Shown: piece after piece, positions 1 through 63,512 of the stretch | Position numbering within the stretch: position 1 is the stretch's first letter | Layout: every line of letters starts with the position of its first letter | Assembly (NCBI GenBank): GCA_947258375.1 | Contig: CAMYIJ010000015.1 | Coordinates: 1,817-65,816, forward strand | Direction of reading: 5' to 3' | Length of the DNA stretch: 64,000 nucleotides | Origin: an uncultured Acidimicrobiaceae bacterium | GTDB lineage: Bacteria; Actinomycetota; Acidimicrobiia; Spongiisociales; UBA5794 | Made by a program: the position numbers and the translations under genes | The notes under the pieces: generated by a model | What the model saw: the letters and a program-made list of their open reading frames with translations, nothing else | Told to the model about the DNA's origin: nothing | Database searches by the model: none

Positions 1-675
1 TGCTGAAGTCGGGAAAGAGCGGACCCAGGCTGCTTATGAGCGAGCATTCGCCGTACAGGGAGCCGTAGGGAAAGGGCCCCTGCAGAAAGAAATGCTGGAG
101 TTGACCGGCCTGGGTCATCAGGCCACGCACGATCCCCATGTCCATGGTGCTGATCTTCGTGGCGACAAGGTTGGGGACCGCCTCGAGCGCCATCACGTAC
201 TCGGCGGGAGCCATCGTGTTCATCCCATAGGGGTAGTTGTAGTGGAGGAAGTTGGCCTCCGGGAATGCGCCACAGACCTGCCGAAAGAATGCGACCTTCT
301 CGTCGGATTGCATGACGCCCCACGACGGCAAGACAATCTGGAACGTACCGGCTCCTCGATCGGATGCGTACCCGATACGTTCGAGCATGTGGTCAACGGA
401 CAGCGAGATCACGCCGATCTGCGGGTGAAGATCATCCCCGTCCATCAAGTCGCAGAACACATCCACGATTCGCCGGAAGGCCCGGTCGCTCAGTGCATAG
501 CCCTCACCAGCCGTGCCGAGCACATAGAGATGGGTGTAACCGTGAGCCAGCAGCTGATTGGTGTGCTTCGCAAAGATGTCGGTGTCGAGCTCATATTCCG
601 CGGTCCAAGGTGTGTTGAGTCCCTTGAGAAGTGCCTGTGGATACCGAGTTCGGGATGCGCCACCATCTTCCATCA
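1..675 (-). CDS. DapA/NAL-family class I aldolase (dihydrodipicolinate synthase family), truncated by window edge
   Basis: Reverse-strand translation gives MMEDGG...HLYVLGTAGEGYALSDRAFRRIVDVFCD..., matching the DapA-family GTxGE motif. Start ATG ~675; no stop before position 1. The listed 92..928 + ORF is its antisense. Confidence 0.6.
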
Positions 676-35302: not shown

Positions 35303-35683
35303 ATGGATCAGATGGCTGACGTGCGCGTCCTCATCGTCGATGACCAGCTTCCCTTCCGCGAAGCCTCGCGTATGGTCGTGGAGATGACCGACGGCTTCGA
35401 GGTCGCCGGCGAAGCTGAGAATGGTGAAGAGGGCGTCGAGATGTCGCGGGCCCTCGGCCCCGACCTGGTTCTCATGGATGTCCAGATGCCCGGCATCGAT
35501 GGGCTCGAGGCCACCCGGAGAATCAGGCAGCTCGACAACCCGCCTCACGTGGTCGTGATGTCCACCCACGAGTCTGGCGACTATCGGGAAACGGCGTTGA
35601 CCGCTGGCGCGGACGCGTTCATCCCCAAGTCCGAGTTCAGCATGGACGCTCTCGAAGAACTGTGGGGTCAGGTCAGCGGCTAA
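35303..35683 (+). CDS. single-domain response regulator (receiver only)
   Basis: [14 protein letters not shown]...[16 protein letters not shown]...VVMSTH. Its 3' end overlaps the convergent kinase gene by 4 nt. Confidence 0.7.
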
Positions 35684-37812
35684 ACACCGACCCGATCGCC
35701 GATCGGCACCGTGCCCCGGACCGTTGTGCCCGATCCAGGTGCCGATTCGAAGCTCAAACTACCGGCGATGGCGTCGATACGGTCAGACATGTTCGCCAGC
35801 CCGGATCCCGCGGCGACGGTTGCCGGGTCGAATCCGCCCCCGTCGTCGGTTACTTCGAAGCTGAGCTGCCCACCGGTCTCCCGCAGGGCGACTGAAGTAG
35901 TTGACGCTCCGGCGTACTTGGCGATGTTCTGCAGTGCCTCGAGGATTGTGAAGTACACGGCAGCTTCGACCTCACGTGAGTATCGACCGACGCCGTCCGC
36001 CTCGACGTCGATGCGGAGCGCAGCTCTTTGGGTCTGATTCGATATCGCAACCGGCAGGCCCTCGGCCTCGAGAAGTGGCGGGTAGACCCCCCCGGAAAAC
36101 GCCCTAACGGCACGGATCGCTTCGCCGGCGTCTGATTCGAGCTGTGCCAGGATCTCAGCAGTCTTGGCGGCACCGGCCTGGGCGGCCAGCTTGCGGGTCG
36201 GTCCCAGCATCACCTTGAGCGCGACCAGCTGCTGTTGTGGCCCGCTGTCGAGGTCGCGCTCCAGAGCCCTTCGCGCTTCGTCGGCAGCGGCCAGAATCCG
36301 CTCGCGGGAGGCCTCCAGTTCTGCTACGTGCTCTCGCAGCTTCGCAGTCAGCCTGGAGTTGCGCAGGGCCAGACCCATTCCGCCGGCGAGACTCGCAATC
36401 AGCTGCTCTTCGGCAGAGGGGAGCTCCTCGCCGCGGGCCTTGTTCAACGAGAGCCCTCCGAGGAGTTCGCCGTCGTGGAACACGGGCAAGGAGTAGTCCG
36501 CGTTCGGGTCCGCGAACGTGTCCGTTCCGGTGATCGCCTCGGGCGCGGCGGTCTCGGGCCAGGTGGCGGTGGCGTGGAATCCCTCGTCGATATGCACCCA
36601 GATGGTGGCCTCGGCAGCCGCCGTGCCGTCGACTATCAGCCGGGGAATTCGCCAGAGCAACTCGTCATCCGACGCTTCCGCAGCCCGATGCGAGAACCGG
36701 GCGAGCACCTCATACGGTGTCGCCCGCTGCCCGTACACGAGCCGATTAGCCCATTCCTGCGCCCGCCGACGCATGGGCCCGAATGCGATTGCTACCAGCG
36801 CTGTTGCTGCCACCTGAATGATGAAATCCGCCCCATCACCCGATCCGAACAGTGACCCCACTCCGACCACGACGGCTACGTACAATCCGGACAGGACGAT
36901 GGCCAAGGTGCCGACCACCACAGTCTTGTTGATCACGACGTCGATGTCGTAAAGCCGGTACCTGCCGACTGCGATCCCGTATGAAGCGATGAAAACGGCA
37001 GCCGCCACCATGAGCGGAACCACCAGCAGACCCTCGTTCGATTCTCCTCCGAGCAGGATCGCCGCAATGAGAGCCGGCCCGAATACGGAGGCACCCCACA
37101 CGATCCATTTGAACTGTTGCCTAGCAACGCCGACGCTGCGTCGGAATCGACCAACCAGAGCGACGAGTGACAGGATTGTGGCGGCGATCGCGGCGGTTGC
37201 TCCGGCGTCGGCCAGGGCTCCTTGATCGACCGCCATGCTCCCCGGGCGATAGCTCCACGCGGCGCCCGCTGCCGCCGCGAGGATGCTGACGGCGGCCAAT
37301 GCGCCGACCCAGCGCCAGCGAGGCGCGGGCAATCTGCCGTCGGGGAACAAGAGGAAACCAAACGTTGGAATGGCGAGAATCGCCGCCACCACGCTCCACT
37401 CGCTCACAATCAAGGTCACCGCCGCCGGCGCAGAGAGATCGGCAGGAATGGAAGGTGCGCCCAAGATCAGAGCGGGATCGTCGACCGCCCACAGCGCGAC
37501 ACCCGCGCGCCCGGCGACGTCAAGGCCACAGAGGGCGGCAATGGCGGCCATGACCCACACCACCGCGTTGCGGGGCTGTTGGGGGATCACCAGCCAGGCG
37601 ACGATGGCGAAGAACAGTGCCAGCAACCCAGCGAACGCCAGGAACTCTCTCCACCACAATTCGGCATGCCCGGCGGTGATGAGCATCGCCGACCCGATCA
37701 CGGCGAGAGTGCCACCGAGTGCGACGACCGCCCGCAGGACTATCACCAATGTGCGATCGGCCTCCCTACCGGGCTGATCCACCGCCGCACGCGTCTCTAC
37801 TCGCACGCTCAT
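35680..37812 (-). CDS. sensor histidine kinase: multi-TM N-terminus, GAF, HisKA_3, HATPase_c
   Basis: ~8 predicted TM helices, a GAF-like region, the H-box ...[15 protein letters not shown]... (HisKA_3, NarL-type partner), and a C-terminal ATPase (G-box [10 protein letters not shown]). Start MSVRVE by ORF arithmetic. Confidence 0.8.
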
Positions 37813-39938
37813 GTCGACTCCAGCACTTCGCCGGCTACGGGAAGCTGCAGCGTGATTGCTGTCCCTTCCTCGGAGGGGACAACTGCCAACGTTCCGCCAA
37901 AGGCGTCGACTCGATCCTCGAGCGCAGTGAACTTTGTCCCACCATTTGCCGAGTCGAATGTCACGGCGACGGACAGCCACGTATTGTCACCTTGAATTTT
38001 CACCTCAGCGGACTTGGCCCCCGCCATCTCGCCCCGGTTCAGCGCCGCCAGCACGCAGAAGTAGATGGTTTCCTCGACTTGCCGCGAGTATCGGGGGATG
38101 TCTTTCGATTCAATCCGGATCTGGAGCTGGACAGTGCGGGTGGTGGCCGCCAAGGCGGGGCCGAGGCCTTCGGCTTCGAGCAGTGGCGGATAGATCCCTC
38201 TGGCGACGGTTCGCATGGCGTCTACGGCCTCTTGGGTGCCGGCTGCAAGAGATGCAATCCTTTCGGTCAGGTCGGCTGCACCTTCGCGCCCTGCGAGGTT
38301 CTGGGCGAGGCCGAGCTTGACCTTGAGCGCCACGACCTGTTGCTGAGCGCCGTCATGAAGGTCGCGTTCCAAGCGGTGGCGGGCGGCGTCGTGCGCCGCG
38401 ATGAGGCGTCGCCTCGAACCTTGGAGTTGATCCGCCCGCTGGACCAGCTCTGCGTTGAGTCGCAGATTACGTAGCAGCAGGCCGGCCCCGGCCGCGACGT
38501 CTGCCAGCAGGTCTTCGTCGGCCGGGGTGACCGGGTGGGCCCGCGGCTTGGCGATGCTGAGGGCGCCGAGCAATTCGCCGCCATGAACCACGGGCACCGA
38601 CAGCTGGAATTCGGAGTTGGGCATGTCGTCGTCGACGCCGATGTCGGATGGATGGGTCGGGACATCGGCCGGTGAGGAAGCTTCCGCGCGGAGGCGCTCG
38701 GCCACTCGGAGCCACACGACGGCGGTTTCGGCCGCTGTGCCGTCGCGAAGGAGCTGAGCGAGCCCCTCGAGCCCGGCGCCAGCCGAAGTGTCCGACAGTT
38801 GAGATGTCAGTTGCGACAGCACCTCCGTGGGCGCCGCCCGTCTTCCGTAGACGATGCGGTTGGCCCAGCGCTGCAGCCTCGCGCGAATCGGTTCGAACAC
38901 GATCGCCACCAACGCCGTGGCTCCCAAGGGCAGCGTGAGGCCCAGGTCGCCTCCTCGCTGGGATTCATCACCGAAGACGAATATGTACGCGAGTACCGCG
39001 GCGCCGTAGAGAGCCGAGATCACCACCGCAAGCGACAGGTAGGCCACCGTCCTCGAGACCACCACATCGATCTCGTACAACCGGTACTTCGTGATAGCCA
39101 TCGCAAAGGCCGCGATCAACAGAACTTCTCCCGCAGCCATCGCAACCGCGCCCGTTCCTGTGAGCGATGTCTTCTCGGTGACGAGCGCCCAGATCACCGC
39201 CATGCTGAGGAACGTGGCACCCCAGCCGATCCAGCGAATCTGGCGTCGGACAATTCCCGAACTGCGCCGATAGCGGACGACGAGCGCGGCTATCCCGAAC
39301 ACCGCGCCAAAGATTGCCAGGACGTCCAGCGTCTCGGAGATCTGAAGGTCCAACCTGTCAAACGCCGAGTCTGGCGGGTCCAGGACGGATTGTGTGACGG
39401 AGGGCCGGACCAGCCATATCGAAAAGCCTACGGCAAGCGACATCGTGATCACGCTGTACCGGCTCGCCCACCTCCACCTTGAAGAGGGCAGCTTGCCGTC
39501 GGGGAAGCGCAGGAGCCCCAACGCCAGGATCAGGCAGAAGACCGGGAGCCAGGCCCAGACCGCGGGCTGCATGGCAAGTGCCACCGGCAACGGTACGCCT
39601 GCCGGGGTCAACCCTTCCGCCACGTCCACAGTGAACTCTGGGAATGACCCGTGACCCCACACAACGATTACGGCAAAGCCGGCGGCGAACAGTGCTCCGA
39701 AGGACGCAGCCCCGACCAGAGCCCACACCACTCCGTTGCGAACTTCCGTGTCAATCGTCAGCCAAACGAGCGATCCGAAGCCGACTGCGAGAATGCCCAG
39801 GTGGACGACGCCCTGGTCGAAGAAGAAGTCCCAGCCGCCGAGTACGGCGACGATTCCCATGCTGAGGAGAGCCACGATCGCCGCGAAGGCGGCGAGCACC
39901 CTCCCCCACGTGATCAAGGTGTGGTCCTGGAAGTTCAC
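37809..39938 (-). CDS. sensor histidine kinase paralogue (multi-TM, GAF, HisKA_3, HATPase_c)
   Basis: Same architecture and collinear similarity to the downstream kinase: [32 protein letters not shown] vs RRRLIAAHDAARHRLERDLHDGAQQQVVALKV. GTG start overlaps the cyclase stop (GTGA). Confidence 0.8.
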   Translation of the reverse strand: MNFQDHTLITWGRVLAAFAAIVALLSMGIVAVLGGWDFFFDQGVVHLGILAVGFGSLVWLTIDTEVRNGVVWALVGAASFGALFAAGFAVIVVWGHGSFPEFTVDVAEGLTPAGVPLPVALAMQPAVWAWLPVFCLILALGLLRFPDGKLPSSRWRWASRYSVITMSLAVGFSIWLVRPSVTQSVLDPPDSAFDRLDLQISETLDVLAIFGAVFGIAALVVRYRRSSGIVRRQIRWIGWGATFLSMAVIWALVTEKTSLTGTGAVAMAAGEVLLIAAFAMAITKYRLYEIDVVVSRTVAYLSLAVVISALYGAAVLAYIFVFGDESQRGGDLGLTLPLGATALVAIVFEPIRARLQRWANRIVYGRRAAPTEVLSQLTSQLSDTSAGAGLEGLAQLLRDGTAAETAVVWLRVAERLRAEASSPADVPTHPSDIGVDDDMPNSEFQLSVPVVHGGELLGALSIAKPRAHPVTPADEDLLADVAAGAGLLLRNLRLNAELVQRADQLQGSRRRLIAAHDAARHRLERDLHDGAQQQVVALKVKLGLAQNLAGREGAADLTERIASLAAGTQEAVDAMRTVARGIYPPLLEAEGLGPALAATTRTVQLQIRIESKDIPRYSRQVEETIYFCVLAALNRGEMAGAKSAEVKIQGDNTWLSVAVTFDSANGGTKFTALEDRVDAFGGTLAVVPSEEGTAITLQLPVAGEVLEST

Positions 39939-41248
39939 GATTCTCTCCTCGGGAACCGGTACGCCATGACCGGTGCTTCTCGCCCCTTCACGAGAGCCGG
40001 CTCGAGTTCGTCGACCTCGATCGCTTGAGTACAGGCCTCCCAGGTAGCGCGGGTCATCACCGTTTCGCCGGGCTCGGCCCACTGCTGGATTCGCTGGGTG
40101 AGGTTCACGGTGTCGCCAACGACCGTCCACTCGAGGCGTTCCTCCGAGCCCAACAGCACGGCAGCTACCTCTCCCGTAGACAGCCCGATTCCCAGTTCGA
40201 AGGGCTCTTTGTCTGCAGGCGCCCACACATCATTGAGCTCGGCCTGAGCAGCGTGAATGGCGATGGCGGCGTCGACGGCGTGTTGGGCGTGGTCGTCCTG
40301 AGGGACCGGCGCGCCAAAAACGGCAATGACGGCGTCGCCGGCGAACTGCATGATTGTGCCGCCCGCGTCGAGGATGGCGTGGTTCATGGCGGCCCGGTGC
40401 TCGTTCAGCTGGCCGGCCAGGACGCTGGGATCGGTCCGCTCGGCGATCGAGGTGTATCCGCGGATGTCTGCCATCAGGACGGTGACCGTCAGCTCTTCGG
40501 TCTCGCCGAGGCGCTGTTTATCGTGGCGCAGCTTGTCGGCGACGCCACCCGGGAGCAGCCGTCCCAGCGTCTCGCCGAGTTCCTCGCGTTCCACAATGGC
40601 CTGGTGAAGTTTCTTGAGTCTCTCCAGGCTCCCCGCCTTGCCAGTTGAGAGGCCTTCGGCGAGCTTCATGAAGAGCTGCTCGATCCCGGCGTCGACGCGT
40701 TCGGGGGTGGTCTTGCGGACGGCCGCGATCGCCTTGATTGGCTTGCCCTCGGCGACCAGCTGCAGCAGGTCTTCTTCCTCAGTACTAAGCGCGCTGTCTT
40801 CGCTGATCGGAGCGGTCAGGGCTTCGACGATCTTCGGATCGAGCATCGATCCGCCGATGGCGACTTCGCGGACTGCCCGTGCCAGCTGGTCGCCCTCACC
40901 AACACGATCCTTGAGCAGGTAGGCGTATCCGGCGGCACCTTGGGCAAGCAGACTCACCGCGTATTCAGGGTCGTCGTATTGCGACAGAATCACCACACCG
41001 GTACCCGGATGGCGTTTGCGAATCTCGATGGCGGCGTCGATGCCTTCTCTCTGAAAGTTGGGCGGCATCCGGATATCCGTGACCACCACCTGTGGGTTGG
41101 CGCTTTCGGCCCCGCCGACAAGCTCGTCGTAATCGGCTGCCGTGCCGACGATGTCGAAGTCGTCCTCCAAATCGAGAAGTGCCTTGACACCCTCGCGCAC
41201 GATCAGGTTGTCGTCTGCCAGGAACACGGAGATAGTGGACGGTTCCAT
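39935..41248 (-). CDS. response regulator fused to class III adenylate/guanylate cyclase (REC-HTH-like-CHD)
   Basis: N-terminal REC (ISVFLADDNLIVREG...VVTDIRMPP); C-terminal cyclase homology domain (VTVLMADIRGYTSIAERTD...QFAGDAVIAVFGAP...GLSTGEVAAVLLGSEERLEWTVVGDTVNLTQRIQ). Confidence 0.8.
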   Translation of the reverse strand: MEPSTISVFLADDNLIVREGVKALLDLEDDFDIVGTAADYDELVGGAESANPQVVVTDIRMPPNFQREGIDAAIEIRKRHPGTGVVILSQYDDPEYAVSLLAQGAAGYAYLLKDRVGEGDQLARAVREVAIGGSMLDPKIVEALTAPISEDSALSTEEEDLLQLVAEGKPIKAIAAVRKTTPERVDAGIEQLFMKLAEGLSTGKAGSLERLKKLHQAIVEREELGETLGRLLPGGVADKLRHDKQRLGETEELTVTVLMADIRGYTSIAERTDPSVLAGQLNEHRAAMNHAILDAGGTIMQFAGDAVIAVFGAPVPQDDHAQHAVDAAIAIHAAQAELNDVWAPADKEPFELGIGLSTGEVAAVLLGSEERLEWTVVGDTVNLTQRIQQWAEPGETVMTRATWEACTQAIEVDELEPALVKGREAPVMAYRFPRRES

Positions 41249-41377
41249 AGTCCAACTCTCGCGCGATTCGAACCGCGGGGCCAGGGTGGATTCCCCCGGA
41301 TGAAGGTGGGGTACTCCCCACCTGTGCCGGCAGGCTGGCACCCTCGACTTCGCGATGGCAGTTGGTAACTTGTTGAC

Positions 41378-60177: not shown

Positions 60178-61213
60178 CTACCCCCGACCGCTCGACTGCA
60201 GAACGGCATGCAGGACCTCGAACTCCTCGAGACAGGCGCCGGAGCCAAGCACGACGGACTGCAATGGCCGCTCGGCCGTGATGATCGGCATGCCGGTCTC
60301 CCCTGCGAGCCGTTGATTGAGGCCCCGCAGCAGAGCGCCGCCCCCGGTGAGAACGATGCCACGTTCCATGATGTCGGCCGCGAGCTCCGGAGGGGTCTTG
60401 TCGAGCGTCAGCTTCACCGCGTCCACGATGGTCTGCACCGGCTCCTCGATGGATTCCCGGACCTCGTGACTCGACAGCACGATGGTCTTAGGGAGACCGG
60501 TGATCAGGTCGCGGCCGCGCACCTCGGCCGCCGGCTCGTCTTCGTAGGGCCACGCGGAGCCGATGGCCATCTTGACCTGCTCGGCGGTCCGCTCACCCAG
60601 CATGAGGTTGTATTCCTTCTTGACCCAGGAGATGATCGCCTCGTCGAGCTCGTCGCCACCGATGCGGATGCTCTTCGATACGACGATGCCGCCCAGCGAG
60701 ATAACCGCGACCTCGGTGGTGCCGCCGCCCATGTCAACAACCATCGAGCCGGCAGGCTCGTGTACCGGCAGACCCACACCGATGGCAGCTGCCATTGGCT
60801 CCTCGATCGTGTAGGCGCGGCGCGCTCCAGCGTGATAGGCCGCCTCTTCGACGGCGCGCCGCTCGACCGCGGTGATTCCGGAGGGAACACAAATCACGAT
60901 GCGAGGCCGGGCCGAGAAGCGCCGGTTGTGCACCTTGTCGATGAAGTAGCGCAGCATCTTCTCAGTGATCTCGAAGTCGGCGATGACTCCGTTGCGCAGC
61001 GGGCGAATCGCCTGGATGTACGACGGCGTGCGGCCGATCATCCGCTTGGCTTCCATACCAACCTCGAGCGGCCGGTTGTCACGGGTATTGATCGCGACCA
61101 CCGATGGCTCATTGAGGACGATGCCCATGCCGCGCACGAACACCAGCGTGTTCGCCGTCCCGAGATCGATCGCCATATCCCGGCCGGCAAATGAGAAAAA
61201 GTCGTTCAACAAA
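60178..61213 (-). CDS. mreB: rod shape-determining protein MreB (actin homologue)
   Basis: ...DMAIDLGTANTLVFV...DMGGGTTEVAVISLGG...VLTGGGALLRGL.... TTG start (LNDFFSFAGRD) inferred; the ATG at MAIDLG is also possible. Confidence 0.9.
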
Positions 61214-61401
61214 GAAAGCCTTACTCGAGGACAAGCCCGCGAAATTCCGAACACGAAGTGTAGCCCGATGTAGCCCCTGCGCACCAAAGGCGGGGTTGAG
61301 AATTCTGCGGATTCCGGCAACCCTGCCGGGTTGCGGTGGAGTTGCTGCGCAACTCCTGGAGCCGGTTTCGGTAGTGTTGAGATACGGAACGCGAGGAGGG
61401 C

Positions 61402-62112
61402 ATGGTGACCACGGATCTGATGCAGCCGGCGTACAGCGCGACGTTGGAGTACGTGGTGGCCAACGGTCGGGCACCGCATTACACAGAGCTGGCTGAGATC
61501 CTCGAGGTTTCGGTCGAAGAGGCGCGGCTCGCCCAGGTCGCTGCGGCCGAGCGAGCGGTGGGGTGCTGGATGGCCGAAGGAACCGACTACGTGAGTTCGT
61601 GGGCGCCCTTCGCCATCACGCCAACTCAGTACGAGATCTCCGTCGACGGGATCCAGAAATGGTACGGCCAGTGAGGGGTTGAATCGCTGGCGGTCCGCTG
61701 GCTATTCCCCGGCCGAGAAGTCCAGATCGACACCCGCTGCCTCGACTGCGGCGAACCGATCGTTATCCGGTTCCGGGACGAGGAGATCCTGGAGATATCG
61801 CCGACGTCGGTGGTGGCCCACATCCAGTATCCGTTCCATCAGTGGCGCGATCTTCCGTTCCCCTACAACTGAGAACGTATGAACCTCTTCCGGTCGGAAG
61901 AGCACGTCAAGGCCTGGCCTCACTACGACCCGGCTTCGGAAGAGGGCATCCTGCCGGTCACGGAGTGGGCCGAGATATTCGCCGGTCCTCTATTCCGTAA
62001 CCGACCCGAGCCGGATTATCTGGCGAACCAGGGCAAGTACTACGGAGCGATCTTCGCCACCCTCGCCGCCACGGGCAAGACCGGCCCGTTCTGGGCTCCG
62101 CCGGCGCGTTGA
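61402..62112 (+). CDS. MerB-family (alkylmercury lyase-like) protein read through two in-frame TGA codons: candidate selenoprotein (236 aa, 2 Sec)
   Basis: The three consecutive ORF-track ORFs 61402..61674, the same-frame stretch 61675..61872, and 61879..62112 are all in frame 1, separated only by TGA at 61672-74 and 61870-72. N-terminus GRAPHYTELAEILEVSVEEARLAQ resembles the MerB HTH [24 protein letters not shown]. YEISVDGIQKWYGQ-U-GVE aligns to MerB YVFEIDDRRLYAW-C96-ALD99. ...FPYN-U-ERMNLFRS aligns to SF-C159-CHVHFFAS. ...EHVKAWPH...EEGILPVTEWAEIFAG resembles EDWASKH...LEGLAIVSVHEAFGLG. GAGGAGG SD lies 6 nt before the ATG. Confidence 0.6.
61675..61712 (+). promoter_or_regulatory. SECIS-like stem-loop downstream of the first in-frame UGA (apical GGUC)
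   Basis: UGA-GGGGUUGAAUCGCUGGCGGUCCGCUGGCUAUUCCCC folds with a lower stem (GGG/CCC, GAAU/AUUC, bulged UU) and an upper stem (GCUGGC/GCUGGC with G·U pairs), exposing GGUC(C) 17 nt after the UGA. Confidence 0.45.
61886..61903 (+). promoter_or_regulatory. SECIS-like perfect hairpin downstream of the second in-frame UGA (CUCUUCC-GGUC-GGAAGAG)
   Basis: 7-bp perfect stem with a GGUC tetraloop beginning 13 nt after the UGA; the loop lies ~20 nt downstream. This is comparable to the E. coli fdhF SECIS apical ...UGCA-GGUC-UGCA... as I recall it. Confidence 0.5.
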
Positions 62113-62129: not shown

Positions 62130-63512
62130 TCACCAGTCGATCAGGGTGTAGTCACCCTCGACCTCGACCTCCCGGCCGTCGAAGATGACGCTGCCGTCGA
62201 AGATGACGCGACCCGGGGACGCGGTAATGATGCGACCGCCGGAGCTGTCGAGCCCGAACGCCGCCGGACCGTCGTAGCGTGCTACCTCAGTCAGGTCGAC
62301 CTCACCGTCACCCAGCCAGATGCCCAGGAGCGCCGTGGACTCCACACCGTCTTGCCAGGTTTCCACCTCGACCAGCAGCTCCATGGCGTGGAATCCGACC
62401 ATCGACCAGTTCCATGAGCTCGCGCCCGGGATGCGGATCACTTCGTCGCCCGCCGCGGGACCGTCGAACTGCGCAGAGAAATGGCGAACGGAGCCCGCGG
62501 TGTCGCCCACGTAGACCACGTCTGCCGTCGGACCCCACGACACCGTCAACAGCTCGTAGCCCGATTCTGAGGTAGCCGGCCGCGGGACCAAATGGCGCCA
62601 CTCGCTCCCTGTTGTGAGGTCGCGGATGACGATGGTGTCGATGGGAGCCAACACAAACTGGGGCTCCTCAGGATCGGGGAAACACTCCGAGGCCGCCAGG
62701 TAGAGCAGTAGCCGGCCGTCTGCCGAGACCCTTGGGGAGAAGCCGTCGCCGATCTCGAAGGCCTTCCCTGTAGCGAGATCGAGCCGAACCAGGAGCCCAT
62801 CGGATCCTTCGCAGGAGAACCACGAGTCCTCGACCAGAACCGAGTAGTACGCCTCCGTCCCCTGCGGTGACAGCTGCGGGCTGCTCGGGTAAACAGCCTC
62901 GGCGCCGTGAGGCACAACGGTGCGAACAACCTGTCCGGTCTCCGTAGACACAGCCACCACGACTCCCTCACGATCTACCGCCAGTGCCAGCCCTTCCTCC
63001 CGGTGTATAGGTCGGGCCGGGTCGACGCCCAGGTAGCGCGGGTAGCAATCCGTGATCGGGTTGGCTTCACGCTCGGCCAGTCGGGTACACCGTTGCGACG
63101 CCTGCCAGGCGTGGTCGAACGAGCCGGAGAACACCACCCAATACCCCGAATTCAACGATGGGTAGCCGTCACTGAGCACCACACCCGCACTCGCCGCGAT
63201 GAGCTCTGAAGCCATCGACACCGCGTCCGAGCGATCGAACTCGTCGACCGGCAGCGAAGCGAGGATGGACGTCCAGGTATCGAACGGTGGTGGCTCGAGG
63301 CCCGGGGCAGCGGTGGTGGTGGTCGAAGTCGACGTGGTCGGTGCCACAGGTTCGGTGGTGACCGACGAGGACGCCACCGACGGCGCGCTCGCAGCGGGCG
63401 GGGTTGACAGAACCGCCGCGGCGCCTGTCGTCGTGGAGCCAGCGCCCCCGGTGTCGGAACAGGCAGAGACGATGATCGAGAGGATCGCCAAGATCGCCAC
63501 TGTGCGCATCAC
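62130..63512 (-). CDS. secreted lipoprotein with Thr/Ser/Pro-rich linker, unknown beta-rich domain
   Basis: MMRTVAILAILSIIVSACSD lipobox, a ~70-aa T/S/A/P-rich linker (...TSTSTTTTAAPGLEPPP), then a ~380-aa domain. Confidence 0.6.
   Translation of the reverse strand: MMRTVAILAILSIIVSACSDTGGAGSTTTGAAAVLSTPPAASAPSVASSSVTTEPVAPTTSTSTTTTAAPGLEPPPFDTWTSILASLPVDEFDRSDAVSMASELIAASAGVVLSDGYPSLNSGYWVVFSGSFDHAWQASQRCTRLAEREANPITDCYPRYLGVDPARPIHREEGLALAVDREGVVVAVSTETGQVVRTVVPHGAEAVYPSSPQLSPQGTEAYYSVLVEDSWFSCEGSDGLLVRLDLATGKAFEIGDGFSPRVSADGRLLLYLAASECFPDPEEPQFVLAPIDTIVIRDLTTGSEWRHLVPRPATSESGYELLTVSWGPTADVVYVGDTAGSVRHFSAQFDGPAAGDEVIRIPGASSWNWSMVGFHAMELLVEVETWQDGVESTALLGIWLGDGEVDLTEVARYDGPAAFGLDSSGGRIITASPGRVIFDGSVIFDGREVEVEGDYTLIDW

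Follow-up and report, generated by a model that had tools for sequence, protein, structure and literature searches.

A MerB-like gene with two in-frame UGA codons in an Acidimicrobiaceae genome probably encodes a double-selenocysteine protein

Results

Organization of the locus

The window referred to throughout is the whole 64,000-nucleotide stretch of DNA that was analysed. It contains a MerB-like gene (Table 1) whose single reading frame, from its ATG to its final TGA, is open except for one TGA at codon 91 and another at codon 157, with no frameshifts and no further stops. A Shine-Dalgarno-like GAGGAGG lies directly 5' of ATG 61402; the spacing is short, and GTG 61405 is an alternative start. 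The gene is monocistronic, diverging from mreB on one flank and converging on the other with an ORF (62130-63512) that begins like a lipoprotein and matches nothing in Pfam. RefSeq calls the pieces "hypothetical protein", and current annotation also has a truncated "organomercurial lyase". An earlier sequence-only reading had described one 236-codon frame split by nothing but these two TGAs and lying outside any mer operon, between mreB and a lipoprotein gene; re-reading the sequence and scanning the neighbours bear out both points.

Table 1. Positions of the MerB-like gene, its features and its divergent neighbour in the window
Feature	Position	Strand	Remarks
MerB-like putative selenoprotein CDS	61402..62112	+	236 residues including two predicted Sec; final stop TGA 62110-62112
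GAGGAGG, Shine-Dalgarno-like	61393..61399	+	Read in sequence
N-terminal three-helix, winged-helix-like region, residues 1-52	61402..61557	+	AlphaFold model of homologue P0009
UGA codon 91, putative Sec91 (MerB Cys96 equivalent)	61672..61674	+	Profile alignment
GAA codon, Glu94 (MerB Asp99 equivalent)	61681..61683	+	Profile alignment
bSECIS-like hairpin 1	61681..61707	+	Apical loop GUC 61693-95; upper stem 61686-92/61696-702, lower stem 61681-83/61705-07
Cys113-Leu-Asp-Cys116 motif, beta-hairpin turn	61738..61749	+	Each Cys ~94% conserved in family alignment
UGA codon 157, putative Sec157 (MerB Cys159 equivalent)	61870..61872	+	Profile alignment
bSECIS-like hairpin 2	61885..61902	+	CUCUUCC-GGUC-GGAAGAG, 7-bp stem; GGUC tetraloop 61892-95; positions 16-33 from the U of the second UGA
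mreB, divergent neighbour (context only)	60181..61200	-	Pfam MreB_Mbl, 493 bits

Relationship to MerB

The Pfam MerB profile (PF03243; cutoff 27 bits) matches the read-through product at 69.6 bits (E=3e-19) over residues 71-191, a stretch that spans both TGAs. Profile alignment to MerB structures places Q-U91-G-x-E94 over W-C96-A-L-D99 and U157 over C159, such that the two UGA codons fall at the catalytic cysteines and a glutamate at Asp99, all as had been proposed from the letters of the sequence. In MerB, Asp99 is the proton donor, and Cys96 and Cys159 bind one Hg atom and lie near each other in the fold. Glu94 is invariant among the family members (145/145), and M160, F163, R164, S165, E166, R201 and D205 are each at least 97% conserved in the family alignment.

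A structure was predicted with AlphaFold for a natural Cys/Cys homologue, P0009, in place of the window protein itself (pLDDT 94.6), and Foldseek searches with this model gave significant matches to MerB and MerB2 only (prob 1.0, TM 0.55-0.65), with MerB or MerB2 filling the top 11 places throughout and identities of 11-17% to these structures. The N-terminus of the model consists of helices at residues 4-21, 27-34 and 38-51, and the Foldseek matches of this region to the winged-helix domains of LexA and MntR are weak and below significance. The Cys113-Leu-Asp-Cys116 motif is absent from two of the three Cys/Cys homologues. Judged from the alignments and the model, the product of the window gene is a MerB-fold protein with a predicted triad, assigned by position, of Sec91, Glu94 and Sec157.

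Distribution and conservation of the family

The codons at both sites were compared across about 165 related loci, among which TGA/TGA pairs predominate (~143), with TGY/TGA in 17 and TGY/TGY in 2. Cysteine codons (TGT or TGC) stand at site 1 in 19 loci and at site 2 in L087, L088 and L089, so that, as predicted by the sequence-only reading, orthologues of both the Cys/TGA and the Cys/Cys type carry Cys exactly where the window gene has UGA. In the family alignment site 1 is TGA in 128 of 145 members, Cys in 16 and Ser in one, and site 2 is TGA in 141 of 145. The loci represent Desulfobacterota, Chloroflexota, Nitrospirota, Actinomycetota, Acidobacteriota and other phyla; the family extends to at least 322 species-representative genomes and more than 533 metagenome stretches, with members known from anaerobic sediment and soil bacteria and from Acidimicrobiia. 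Cultured carriers include Desulforhabdus sp. TSK and strains of Geomonas and Syntrophobacter.

The closest relative, in the Acidimicrobiaceae MAG locus L007, is 88% identical and has the mreB synteny in common with the window. Between these two genes dN/dS is 0.10, 0.26 and 0.05 for the first, second and third segments as delimited by the TGAs (dS 0.39-0.79). The coding sequence downstream of the UGAs is thus conserved and under purifying selection, and purifying selection on all three segments indicates that both UGAs are translated through.

Genomic neighbourhood and domain fusions

When ORFs up to 5 kb away were clustered at 152 loci, the gene proved to have no conserved neighbour, the best being generic PAS kinases at 15 of the 152, and no merA, merR, merT or merP context around the family members at these loci. 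No GMxCxxC motif was found near any member, and a tblastn search with MerC yielded no further mer genes; the sole link to mercury comes from a single Cys/Cys homologue, which has a MerC gene next to it. The domain is fused in frame, in its U/U or C/U form, to a class III nucleotide cyclase (PF00211) at about 17 loci, L067 and L073 among them, and to an AAA ATPase (PF00004) at five (L033, L041, L047, L058 and L066), with the standalone form, as in the window, accounting for the majority of members. Class III cyclases are commonly regulated by N-terminal ligand-binding domains.

SECIS-like hairpins follow both UGA codons

Each UGA is followed by a hairpin, numbered here from the U of the UGA as position 1. 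Hairpin 1 has a 7-bp upper stem (15-21/25-31) and the loop G22-U23-C24. In the window fold its lower stem is 10-13/33-36, of which only 10-12/34-36 is kept family-wide; the putative 13-33 pair (61684/61704) forms in the window fold only and finds no support across the family. The folding energies are -10.9 kcal/mol for hairpin 1 (z=-2.98) and -9.1 kcal/mol for hairpin 2 (z=-2.55), with 1 of 200 shuffles folding equally well in each case. Folding z-scores over 60-nt windows are below significance, and the support for the hairpins is therefore taken from comparative data.

Published criteria for bacterial SECIS elements call for a loop of 3-9 nt, a stem of at least 4 bp, a G within the first two loop positions, a spacing of 16-37 nt and a minimum free energy of -7.5 kcal/mol or lower (PMC13188914). 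Judged from their folds, both hairpins agree with this model, with 7-bp stems, loops of GUC and GGUC, and spacings of 18 nt and 19 nt, respectively. The sequence-only reading had drawn a GGUC-loop hairpin after each UGA; the hairpins stand, as does the GGUC loop of the second, and the loop assigned to the first does not. In hairpin 1 a G-C pair closes the triloop GUC (alternatively, the loop is the pentaloop GGUCC), and there is no clean GGUC tetraloop.

The comparative data separate UGA from Cys forms. The full 6-bp upper stem of hairpin 1 together with G22-U23 is present in 131/131 unique UGA forms versus 5/16 Cys forms (Fisher p=3.7e-13). Of 132 unique sequences, 127 have GGUC as the loop of hairpin 2. 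The codons of this hairpin are fixed, with Leu as CTC in 79/79, Arg as CGG in 78/79 and Ser as TCG in 79/79, where the background frequencies of these codons are 0.29, 0.22 and 0.23, respectively; the exact sequence CTCTTCCGGTCGGAA occurs in 118 of 132 unique sequences, for an expectation of 0.4% from the family's own codon usage. The peptides encoded over the two hairpins are themselves conserved (LAV[RS]W and LFRSEE), and in the Cys/Cys form L087 both hairpins are lost with the peptide kept. We found no two-sided compensatory covariation in the hairpin stems, which are nearly invariant, and the RNA-structure argument consequently consists of synonymous-site constraint and of the way UGA forms differ from Cys forms. 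At synonymous sites the hairpins are thus fixed among UGA forms, and among Cys forms they decay; their conservation in UGA-bearing orthologues favours the sequence-only reading.

The elements resemble the SECIS of Escherichia coli fdhF in that the hairpin lies within the coding sequence directly 3' of the UGA and has G-U in its apical loop, which in hairpin 2 is GGUC, and the 17-19 nt spacing falls inside the published 16-37 nt. They differ in that two independent elements with short stems of 6-7 bp occupy one short gene, each constrained by a conserved peptide.

Comparison with SaoL and authentic MerB

A MerB-like selenoprotein family, SaoL (NCBIfam NF040728), has been described earlier (Haft & Gwadz 2022, bioRxiv 10.1101/2022.07.06.499078); its one Sec belongs to a CU motif and stands where MerB has Cys159. 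The sequence-only reading had suggested that no selenocysteine-containing MerB family was on record. SaoL and the window family both have the MerB fold, a match to PF03243 and Sec at the Cys159-equivalent position; both are mostly mis-annotated as truncated proteins and both lie outside mercury-resistance operons. However, SaoL retains Cys and Asp in the rest of the triad, whereas the window family is Sec/Sec in ~87% of members and has an invariant Glu in place of Asp, with a second site of N-U-E-R lacking an adjacent Cys and a first site of U-G-x-E. SaoL is encoded in a conserved nine-gene SAO locus of strict anaerobes; the window family has no conserved neighbourhood and is present in Acidimicrobiia too, and cyclase and AAA fusions are undescribed for SaoL. 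We rejected assignment of the window protein to SaoL, as it scores 37.2 bits with NF040728 against a cutoff of 140 and lacks both the CU dipeptide and the SAO locus.

Authentic MerB and MerB2 (EC 4.99.1.2; PDB 3F0P, 1S6L, 5C17) have in common with the window protein the fold, the three active-site positions and a Pfam match above the gathering score, but their triad is Cys/Asp/Cys and not Sec/Glu/Sec, which is chemically analogous without being identical. Assignment to authentic MerB was likewise rejected, given scores of 35.4 bits with NF009710 (cutoff 193) and 29.4 with NF033555 (cutoff 200), the differing triad residues and the lack of a mer operon. On sequence grounds, the window family is distinct from both SaoL and authentic MerB.

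An "Organic mercuric lyase MerB2" is listed among bacterial selenoproteins, from 17 organisms (Peng et al. 2016, ISME J, Table S3, PMC5029168). The entry carries no motif, Sec count or sequences; later reviews equate it with SaoL (CU motif, 1 Sec, NF040728). No description of a double-Sec MerB-like family was found in GOS 2008, Olavius 2007 or the main text of Peng 2016.

Discussion

Proposed mechanism and function

We consider it highly probable that the window gene encodes a genuine double-Sec MerB-fold selenoprotein, a judgement that leaves any substrate aside. Each in-frame UGA would be decoded as selenocysteine by SelB with Sec-tRNA(Sec), SelB being recruited by a separate intragenic SECIS hairpin 17-19 nt past each UGA. 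In the folded protein a soft metal or metalloid centre may be gripped between the two selenolates, and protonation of the carbon-metal bond may fall to the invariant Glu, as in MerB-type protonolysis. By analogy with MerB, organomercurial lyase function may be inferred for the window protein, and we tentatively hold that the protein could be a turnover carbon-metal lyase acting on an organomercurial or another organometal, at somewhat less than even chances.

Since relatives have the domain fused to signalling partners, a role in sensing or binding deserves serious consideration as an alternative, though it is less likely than not: the diselenolate pocket of the double-Sec protein would bind a soft metal or organometal with very high affinity, to sense or sequester it, and the protein would not be a turnover lyase; it would drive the output domain in fusions and act via partner proteins when standalone. 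Both the cyclase and the AAA ATPase fusions fit this alternative, as does the winged-helix-like look of the N-terminal region in the model of P0009. Hg(II) would, on chemical reasoning, be held very tightly by two selenolates, a point against ready release of the product and against turnover, and the gene has no MerA partner to take over the bound ion. However, the invariance of Glu94 is most simply explained by retained protonolysis chemistry, and most members, the window gene included, are standalone.

Other chemistry is improbable in general, and a redox-active diselenide, with the protein acting as a double-Sec oxidoreductase and not on metals, is more improbable still. The majority of selenoproteins in prokaryotes have thiol oxidoreductases as their homologues (PMC9312934, PMC13188914), a resemblance that would favour such a role. 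The two sites also lie near each other in the MerB fold, judging from the alignment and MerB structures, but that fold is not thioredoxin-like, the invariant carboxylate fits the MerB triad, and there are no conserved redox partner genes nearby.

Decoding of the UGA codons

Translation of the UGAs as something other than selenocysteine, through a code in which TGA is sense (Trp or Gly), near-cognate read-through, or Cys insertion by a tRNA(Sec)-like tRNA, is very unlikely. Cys-charged tRNA(Sec)-like species are reported from some bacteria, and some gene callers write Trp for these TGAs. Within the 64-kb window, none of 30 long ORFs scanned with Pfam proved to be selA, selB or selD, and ARAGORN and Rfam found no tRNA-Sec (selC), nor was a tRNA-Sec found in 1.73 Mb of related loci. 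Against such decoding, TGA is the commonest stop in the window, ending 33 of 52 ORFs including the MerB-like gene itself, which points to the standard code; both UGAs are followed by SelB-type hairpins with a G-U loop at canonical spacing; and the homologue residue at the UGA columns is Cys and never, at the DNA level, Trp. Moreover, relatives carry selD, selA or selB within 10 kb of the family gene: SelA and SelB are encoded at L045, SelB at L049, and in the Acidimicrobiaceae MAG locus L073 the family member adjoins a SelD that has an in-frame UGA of its own, all these calls being above NCBIfam equivalog cutoffs.

A decayed MerB-like pseudogene with two nonsense mutations is suggested by the in-frame stops themselves and by a public annotation that splits the gene into hypothetical proteins, but this reading, to which we give next to no credence, can be regarded as already refuted by the comparative data, since orthologues at ~143 loci in several phyla have the TGAs at identical positions, all three segments are under purifying selection that is strongest past the second TGA, frameshifts and other stops are absent, and the hairpins are conserved.

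A scan of the window for same-frame ORF pairs split by TGA gave no second convincing selenoprotein gene; a split ORF at 39652 was rejected as a shadow ORF with a low-complexity translation.

Significance

To our knowledge, no enzyme that breaks carbon-mercury bonds is well characterised apart from MerB, which works through a pair of cysteine thiolates and a carboxylate. Compared with thiolates, selenolates are stronger acids and nucleophiles and bind soft metals more tightly, so a natural MerB with both thiolates replaced by selenolates would be a chemically extreme variant; an active site with two Sec residues is uncommon among bacterial proteins. Desulfobacterota, Chloroflexota and Nitrospirota, in which the window family is abundant, are important to how mercury is methylated and demethylated in sediment and soil, and the family is present in Acidimicrobiia as well. 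It is conceivable, though we think it unlikely, that this widespread and uncatalogued family, with its MerB-fold site of two selenolates and a Glu, carries out organometal or organometalloid chemistry or sensing independently of mer operons. Examples would be methylmercury demethylation and, in the cyclase fusions, sensing coupled to cAMP signalling. If true, the cycling of mercury and metalloids in the environment would gain a new component that depends on selenium. The ligand-sensing role suggested by the cyclase and AAA ATPase fusions is directly testable. Annotation at present hides the family, and a curated Sec-aware model would mend hundreds of broken gene calls. The two SECIS elements, compact and nearly invariant, are possible parts for recombinant selenoprotein expression.

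A MerB-like gene with two in-frame UGA codons

The MerB-like gene of the window is very probably a genuine, intact double-selenocysteine gene belonging to a large unannotated family. The analyses demonstrate that the gene has two UGA codons and two SECIS-type hairpins, that both codons are read through in translation, and that the product has the fold of MerB, with Sec, Glu and Sec at the positions of the MerB triad (Cys96/Asp99/Cys159). A Shine-Dalgarno-like motif, GAGGAGG, precedes the ATG, and translation of the window DNA shows that the two TGA codons noted in the sequence-only reading are the only interruptions of a single frame. With both TGAs taken as Cys, the Pfam MerB model (PF03243; gathering score 27) matches residues 71-191 at 69.6 bits (E=3e-19), a single match that therefore spans both codons. 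Searching every PDB sequence with a profile of the family gave MerB2 (5C17, E=8e-10) and MerB (1S6L/3F0P and others, E ~5e-5) and nothing else, and the profile's alignment to MerB places TGA 1 on Cys96, Glu94 on Asp99 and TGA 2 on Cys159; the two matches together substantiate the collinearity with MerB, and the UGAs at its catalytic cysteines, that had been proposed from sequence. An AlphaFold model of the natural Cys/Cys homologue P0009 (50% identity to the window protein; mean pLDDT 94.6, pTM 0.91) gave as its top 11 Foldseek matches in the PDB only MerB or MerB2 structures (prob 1.0, TM 0.55-0.65), with no significant match outside them.

When 145 read-through sequences are aligned, Glu94, Gln90, Trp87, Trp100 and Pro69 are invariant, Sec occupies site 1 (codon 91) in 128 and site 2 (codon 157) in 141, and Cys55 is not conserved. 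Conservation is about 94% for each of Cys113 and Cys116; this Cys-x-x-Cys pair (window 61738-61749) lies at a beta-hairpin turn, is absent from two of three Cys/Cys homologues, and may constitute a second metal or structural site.

Features of the window gene, and selenocysteine machinery at related loci (hairpin positions count the U of each UGA as 1)
Feature	Location	Strand	Details
MerB-like double-TGA gene	61402-62112	+	one frame, 236 codons
First in-frame TGA	61672-74	+	codon 91
Second in-frame TGA	61870-72	+	codon 157
Terminal stop TGA	62110-12	+	
Hairpin 1	upper stem 15-21/25-31	+	loop G22-U23-C24; window fold
Hairpin 2	positions 16-33	+	CUCUUCC-GGUC-GGAAGAG; window fold
SelD with own in-frame UGA	L073:4104-5180	+	380 bits (cutoff 125); ~5 kb from family gene
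SelA	L045:5659-9099, shared with adjacent SelB	+	608 bits (cutoff 267.9); directly upstream of family gene
SelB	L045:5659-9099, shared with adjacent SelA	+	367 bits (cutoff 242.25); directly upstream of family gene
SelB	L049:1028-3046	+	371 bits (cutoff 242.25); within 10 kb of family gene

Distribution and codons at the two sites

Of the 102 homologues retrieved in a protein search, many end exactly at residue 156 or 90 and others begin at residue 160, and several "full-length" metagenome calls have Trp at both sites. Such Trp residues arise where the gene caller changed to a code that reads TGA as Trp, an artefact that disguises selenoprotein genes as ordinary full-length proteins: in the DNA of locus L001 the Trp of the protein call is TGA translated under code 4, and at L002 and L006 the shortened calls stop at TGA. 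Trp at both Sec sites is seen at L001 and in JGI calls P0001-P0003, P0005-P0008, P0012-P0014, P0016 and P0028; P0010 and P0011 have Ser at the first site and Trp at the second.

Scanning one genome per GTDB species identified 322 related stretches, and a metagenome scan at least 533 confirmed relatives among at least 600 matched stretches, with carriers including Desulfobacterota ("delta proteobacteria"), Anaerolineales, Dehalococcoidia, Nitrospirota, Acidobacteriota, Nitrospinota, Gaiellaceae and Acidimicrobiia. The nearest relative (L007, from an Acidimicrobiaceae MAG; 88% identity) likewise adjoins mreB. Among about 165 fetched loci, sites 1 and 2 are TGA/TGA in approximately 143, TGY/TGA in 17, TGY/TGY in two and TCA/TGT in one, so that Cys does occur in homologues where the UGAs stand, as had been anticipated. 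The TCA/TGT (Ser/Cys) locus, L089:563-1273 (P0004, 25 member sequences), has both SECIS-like hairpins intact despite these residues, which suggests that the sites were converted very recently or that this is a sequencing variant.

Conservation of the hairpins

Hairpins 1 and 2 of the window gene (-10.9 and -9.1 kcal/mol; 1/200 shuffles as stable in each case) both satisfy the published bacterial SECIS model, with a loop of 3-9 nt, a stem of 4-16 bp, spacing of 16-37 nt, G in the first two loop positions followed by G or U, and MFE <=-7.5 kcal/mol (PMC13188914). A GGUC loop had been described after each UGA; hairpins are present at both, with GGUC at the second and GUC at the first. The lower stem of hairpin 1 is 10-13/33-36 in the window's fold, of which only 10-12/34-36 is conserved family-wide, the 13-33 pair finding no support in the family comparison. 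Folding z-scores over 60-nt windows are unremarkable, so that it is the comparative evidence which supports the hairpins.

Across 81 unique genes with GC contents from 46% to 69%, the codons forming hairpin 2 are almost fixed relative to the rest of the same genes: CTC for Leu in 79/79 (0.29 elsewhere), TTC for Phe in 81/81 (0.67), CGG for Arg in 78/79 (0.22), TCG for Ser in 79/79 (0.23) and GAA for Glu in 77/80 (0.42). The exact sequence CTCTTCCGGTCGGAA is found in 118 of 132 unique sequences, against 0.4% expected from family codon usage, and the loop is GGUC in 127/132. The six-pair upper stem and G22-U23 of hairpin 1 are present in all 131 unique UGA forms and in only 5/16 site-1 Cys forms (Fisher p=3.7e-13), among which the LAV[RS]W peptide is likewise relaxed. 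Both hairpins are conserved in UGA-containing orthologues; lack of such conservation had been named as a refutation in the sequence-only reading. Both are lost in the Cys/Cys homologue L087, where NIFRSE is encoded ATA TTT CGT TCT GAA GAC. Stem changes in the family comparison are all one-sided with pairing kept, and no two-sided compensatory covariation was seen.

Intactness, genetic code and selenocysteine machinery

Between the window gene and L007, dN/dS is 0.10 for residues 1-90, 0.26 for residues 92-156 (0.21 without hairpin codons) and 0.05 for residues 158-236, with dS of 0.39-0.79 across the three segments; the low values after each UGA indicate that the downstream parts are translated and selected in this lineage. 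A decayed pseudogene is ruled out by these ratios (0.05-0.26 past the UGAs) and by TGAs at the same sites in so many loci. The genetic code is standard, TGA being the stop codon of 33 of the window's 52 predicted ORFs, this gene included. Two same-frame ORFs of high GC3 split only by TGA 39652-54 (39346-39969, +) were considered as a second selenoprotein gene and judged a shadow ORF because their translation is of low complexity and they lie opposite a histidine-kinase ORF (37812-40226, -).

No tRNA-Sec was found within the 64-kb window, nor SelA, SelB or SelD among its 30 long ORFs. A motif scan of related loci followed by NCBIfam equivalog models identified SelD in an Acidimicrobiaceae MAG (L073), with its UGA in a GSG-U-ACK motif, SelA and SelB in a Nitrospirota MAG (L045), and SelB at L049. 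Insertion of Sec at both UGAs would be SelB-dependent.

Gene neighbourhoods

The window's long ORFs encode a CoxL-like molybdenum hydroxylase, oxidoreductases, an Opp-type ABC transporter, histidine kinases, a response-regulator cyclase, ProB, Obg, RNase E/G, RodA and others. Neighbouring cell-shape genes (PBP2, MreD and MreC) were read from ORF translations, and MreB was confirmed separately. A convergent ORF (62130-63512, -; 460 aa) has a lipoprotein-like signal (…LSIIVSAC) and a Thr/Ser/Ala-rich linker, with no Pfam match. No neighbour family recurs, the best being generic PAS kinases at 15/152 loci, and no HMA or MerP-type motif was found near any family member. The sole mercury link among the family loci is a MerC gene (PF03203, 52 bits; L088:1-417, +) that precedes a Cys/Cys homologue (452-1216) by 35 nt; the reported absence of a mer operon holds for the window gene.

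Relationship to SaoL and possible roles

The sequence-only reading named no Sec-containing MerB family, but one is already known, SaoL. Unlike the family of the window gene, SaoL carries a single Sec, in a CU motif that aligns with Cys159, retains Cys and Asp in the rest of the triad, and belongs to a nine-gene locus of strict anaerobes. Identity with SaoL or authentic MerB is rejected, as NCBIfam scores for the window protein fall far under cutoffs (SaoL, 37 bits, cutoff 140; MerB models, 35 bits, cutoff 193, and 29 bits, cutoff 200). Peng et al. 2016 list a "MerB2" selenoprotein without detail (Table S3), which later reviews equate with SaoL (CU motif, one Sec). No paper on a MerB-fold family whose two catalytic positions are both Sec was found in the literature searched, some recent sources lying outside it, and NCBIfam release 20 contains no corresponding model. 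Family members appear as RefSeq "hypothetical protein" pieces (WP_244082897.1 and WP_244082895.1, Desulforhabdus sp. TSK; WP_324083630.1, Geomonas) and as shortened "organomercurial lyase" entries in GenBank MAG records.

The two selenols would form a diselenolate pocket binding a soft metal or metalloid, with Glu94 as the putative proton donor for protonolysis of a carbon-metal bond; retention of lyase chemistry is favoured because Glu94 is invariant. The fusions to signalling domains, the missing MerA-type acceptor and the very tight Se-Hg binding expected speak for a sensor or sequestration role, which is somewhat less probable than the lyase; a diselenide redox role is less probable still. 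Most members, including the window gene, are standalone proteins of ~235 residues. At about 17 loci, mainly from Actinomycetota (among them L002, L059, L062-L065, L067, L070, L072-L075, L080 and L086), the frame runs into a class III nucleotide cyclase domain, for 393 residues in total, and at five Chloroflexota loci (L033, L041, L047, L058, L066) into an AAA ATPase (~519 residues). Gene callers break these fusions at the second TGA, and the output domain therefore seems to start with MNLFRSEE. A separate fusion of a response-regulator receiver and class III cyclase (window 39938-41341, -), beside two large histidine kinases (35683-40226), shows that cyclase signalling is used by this genome, and is unrelated to the window gene.
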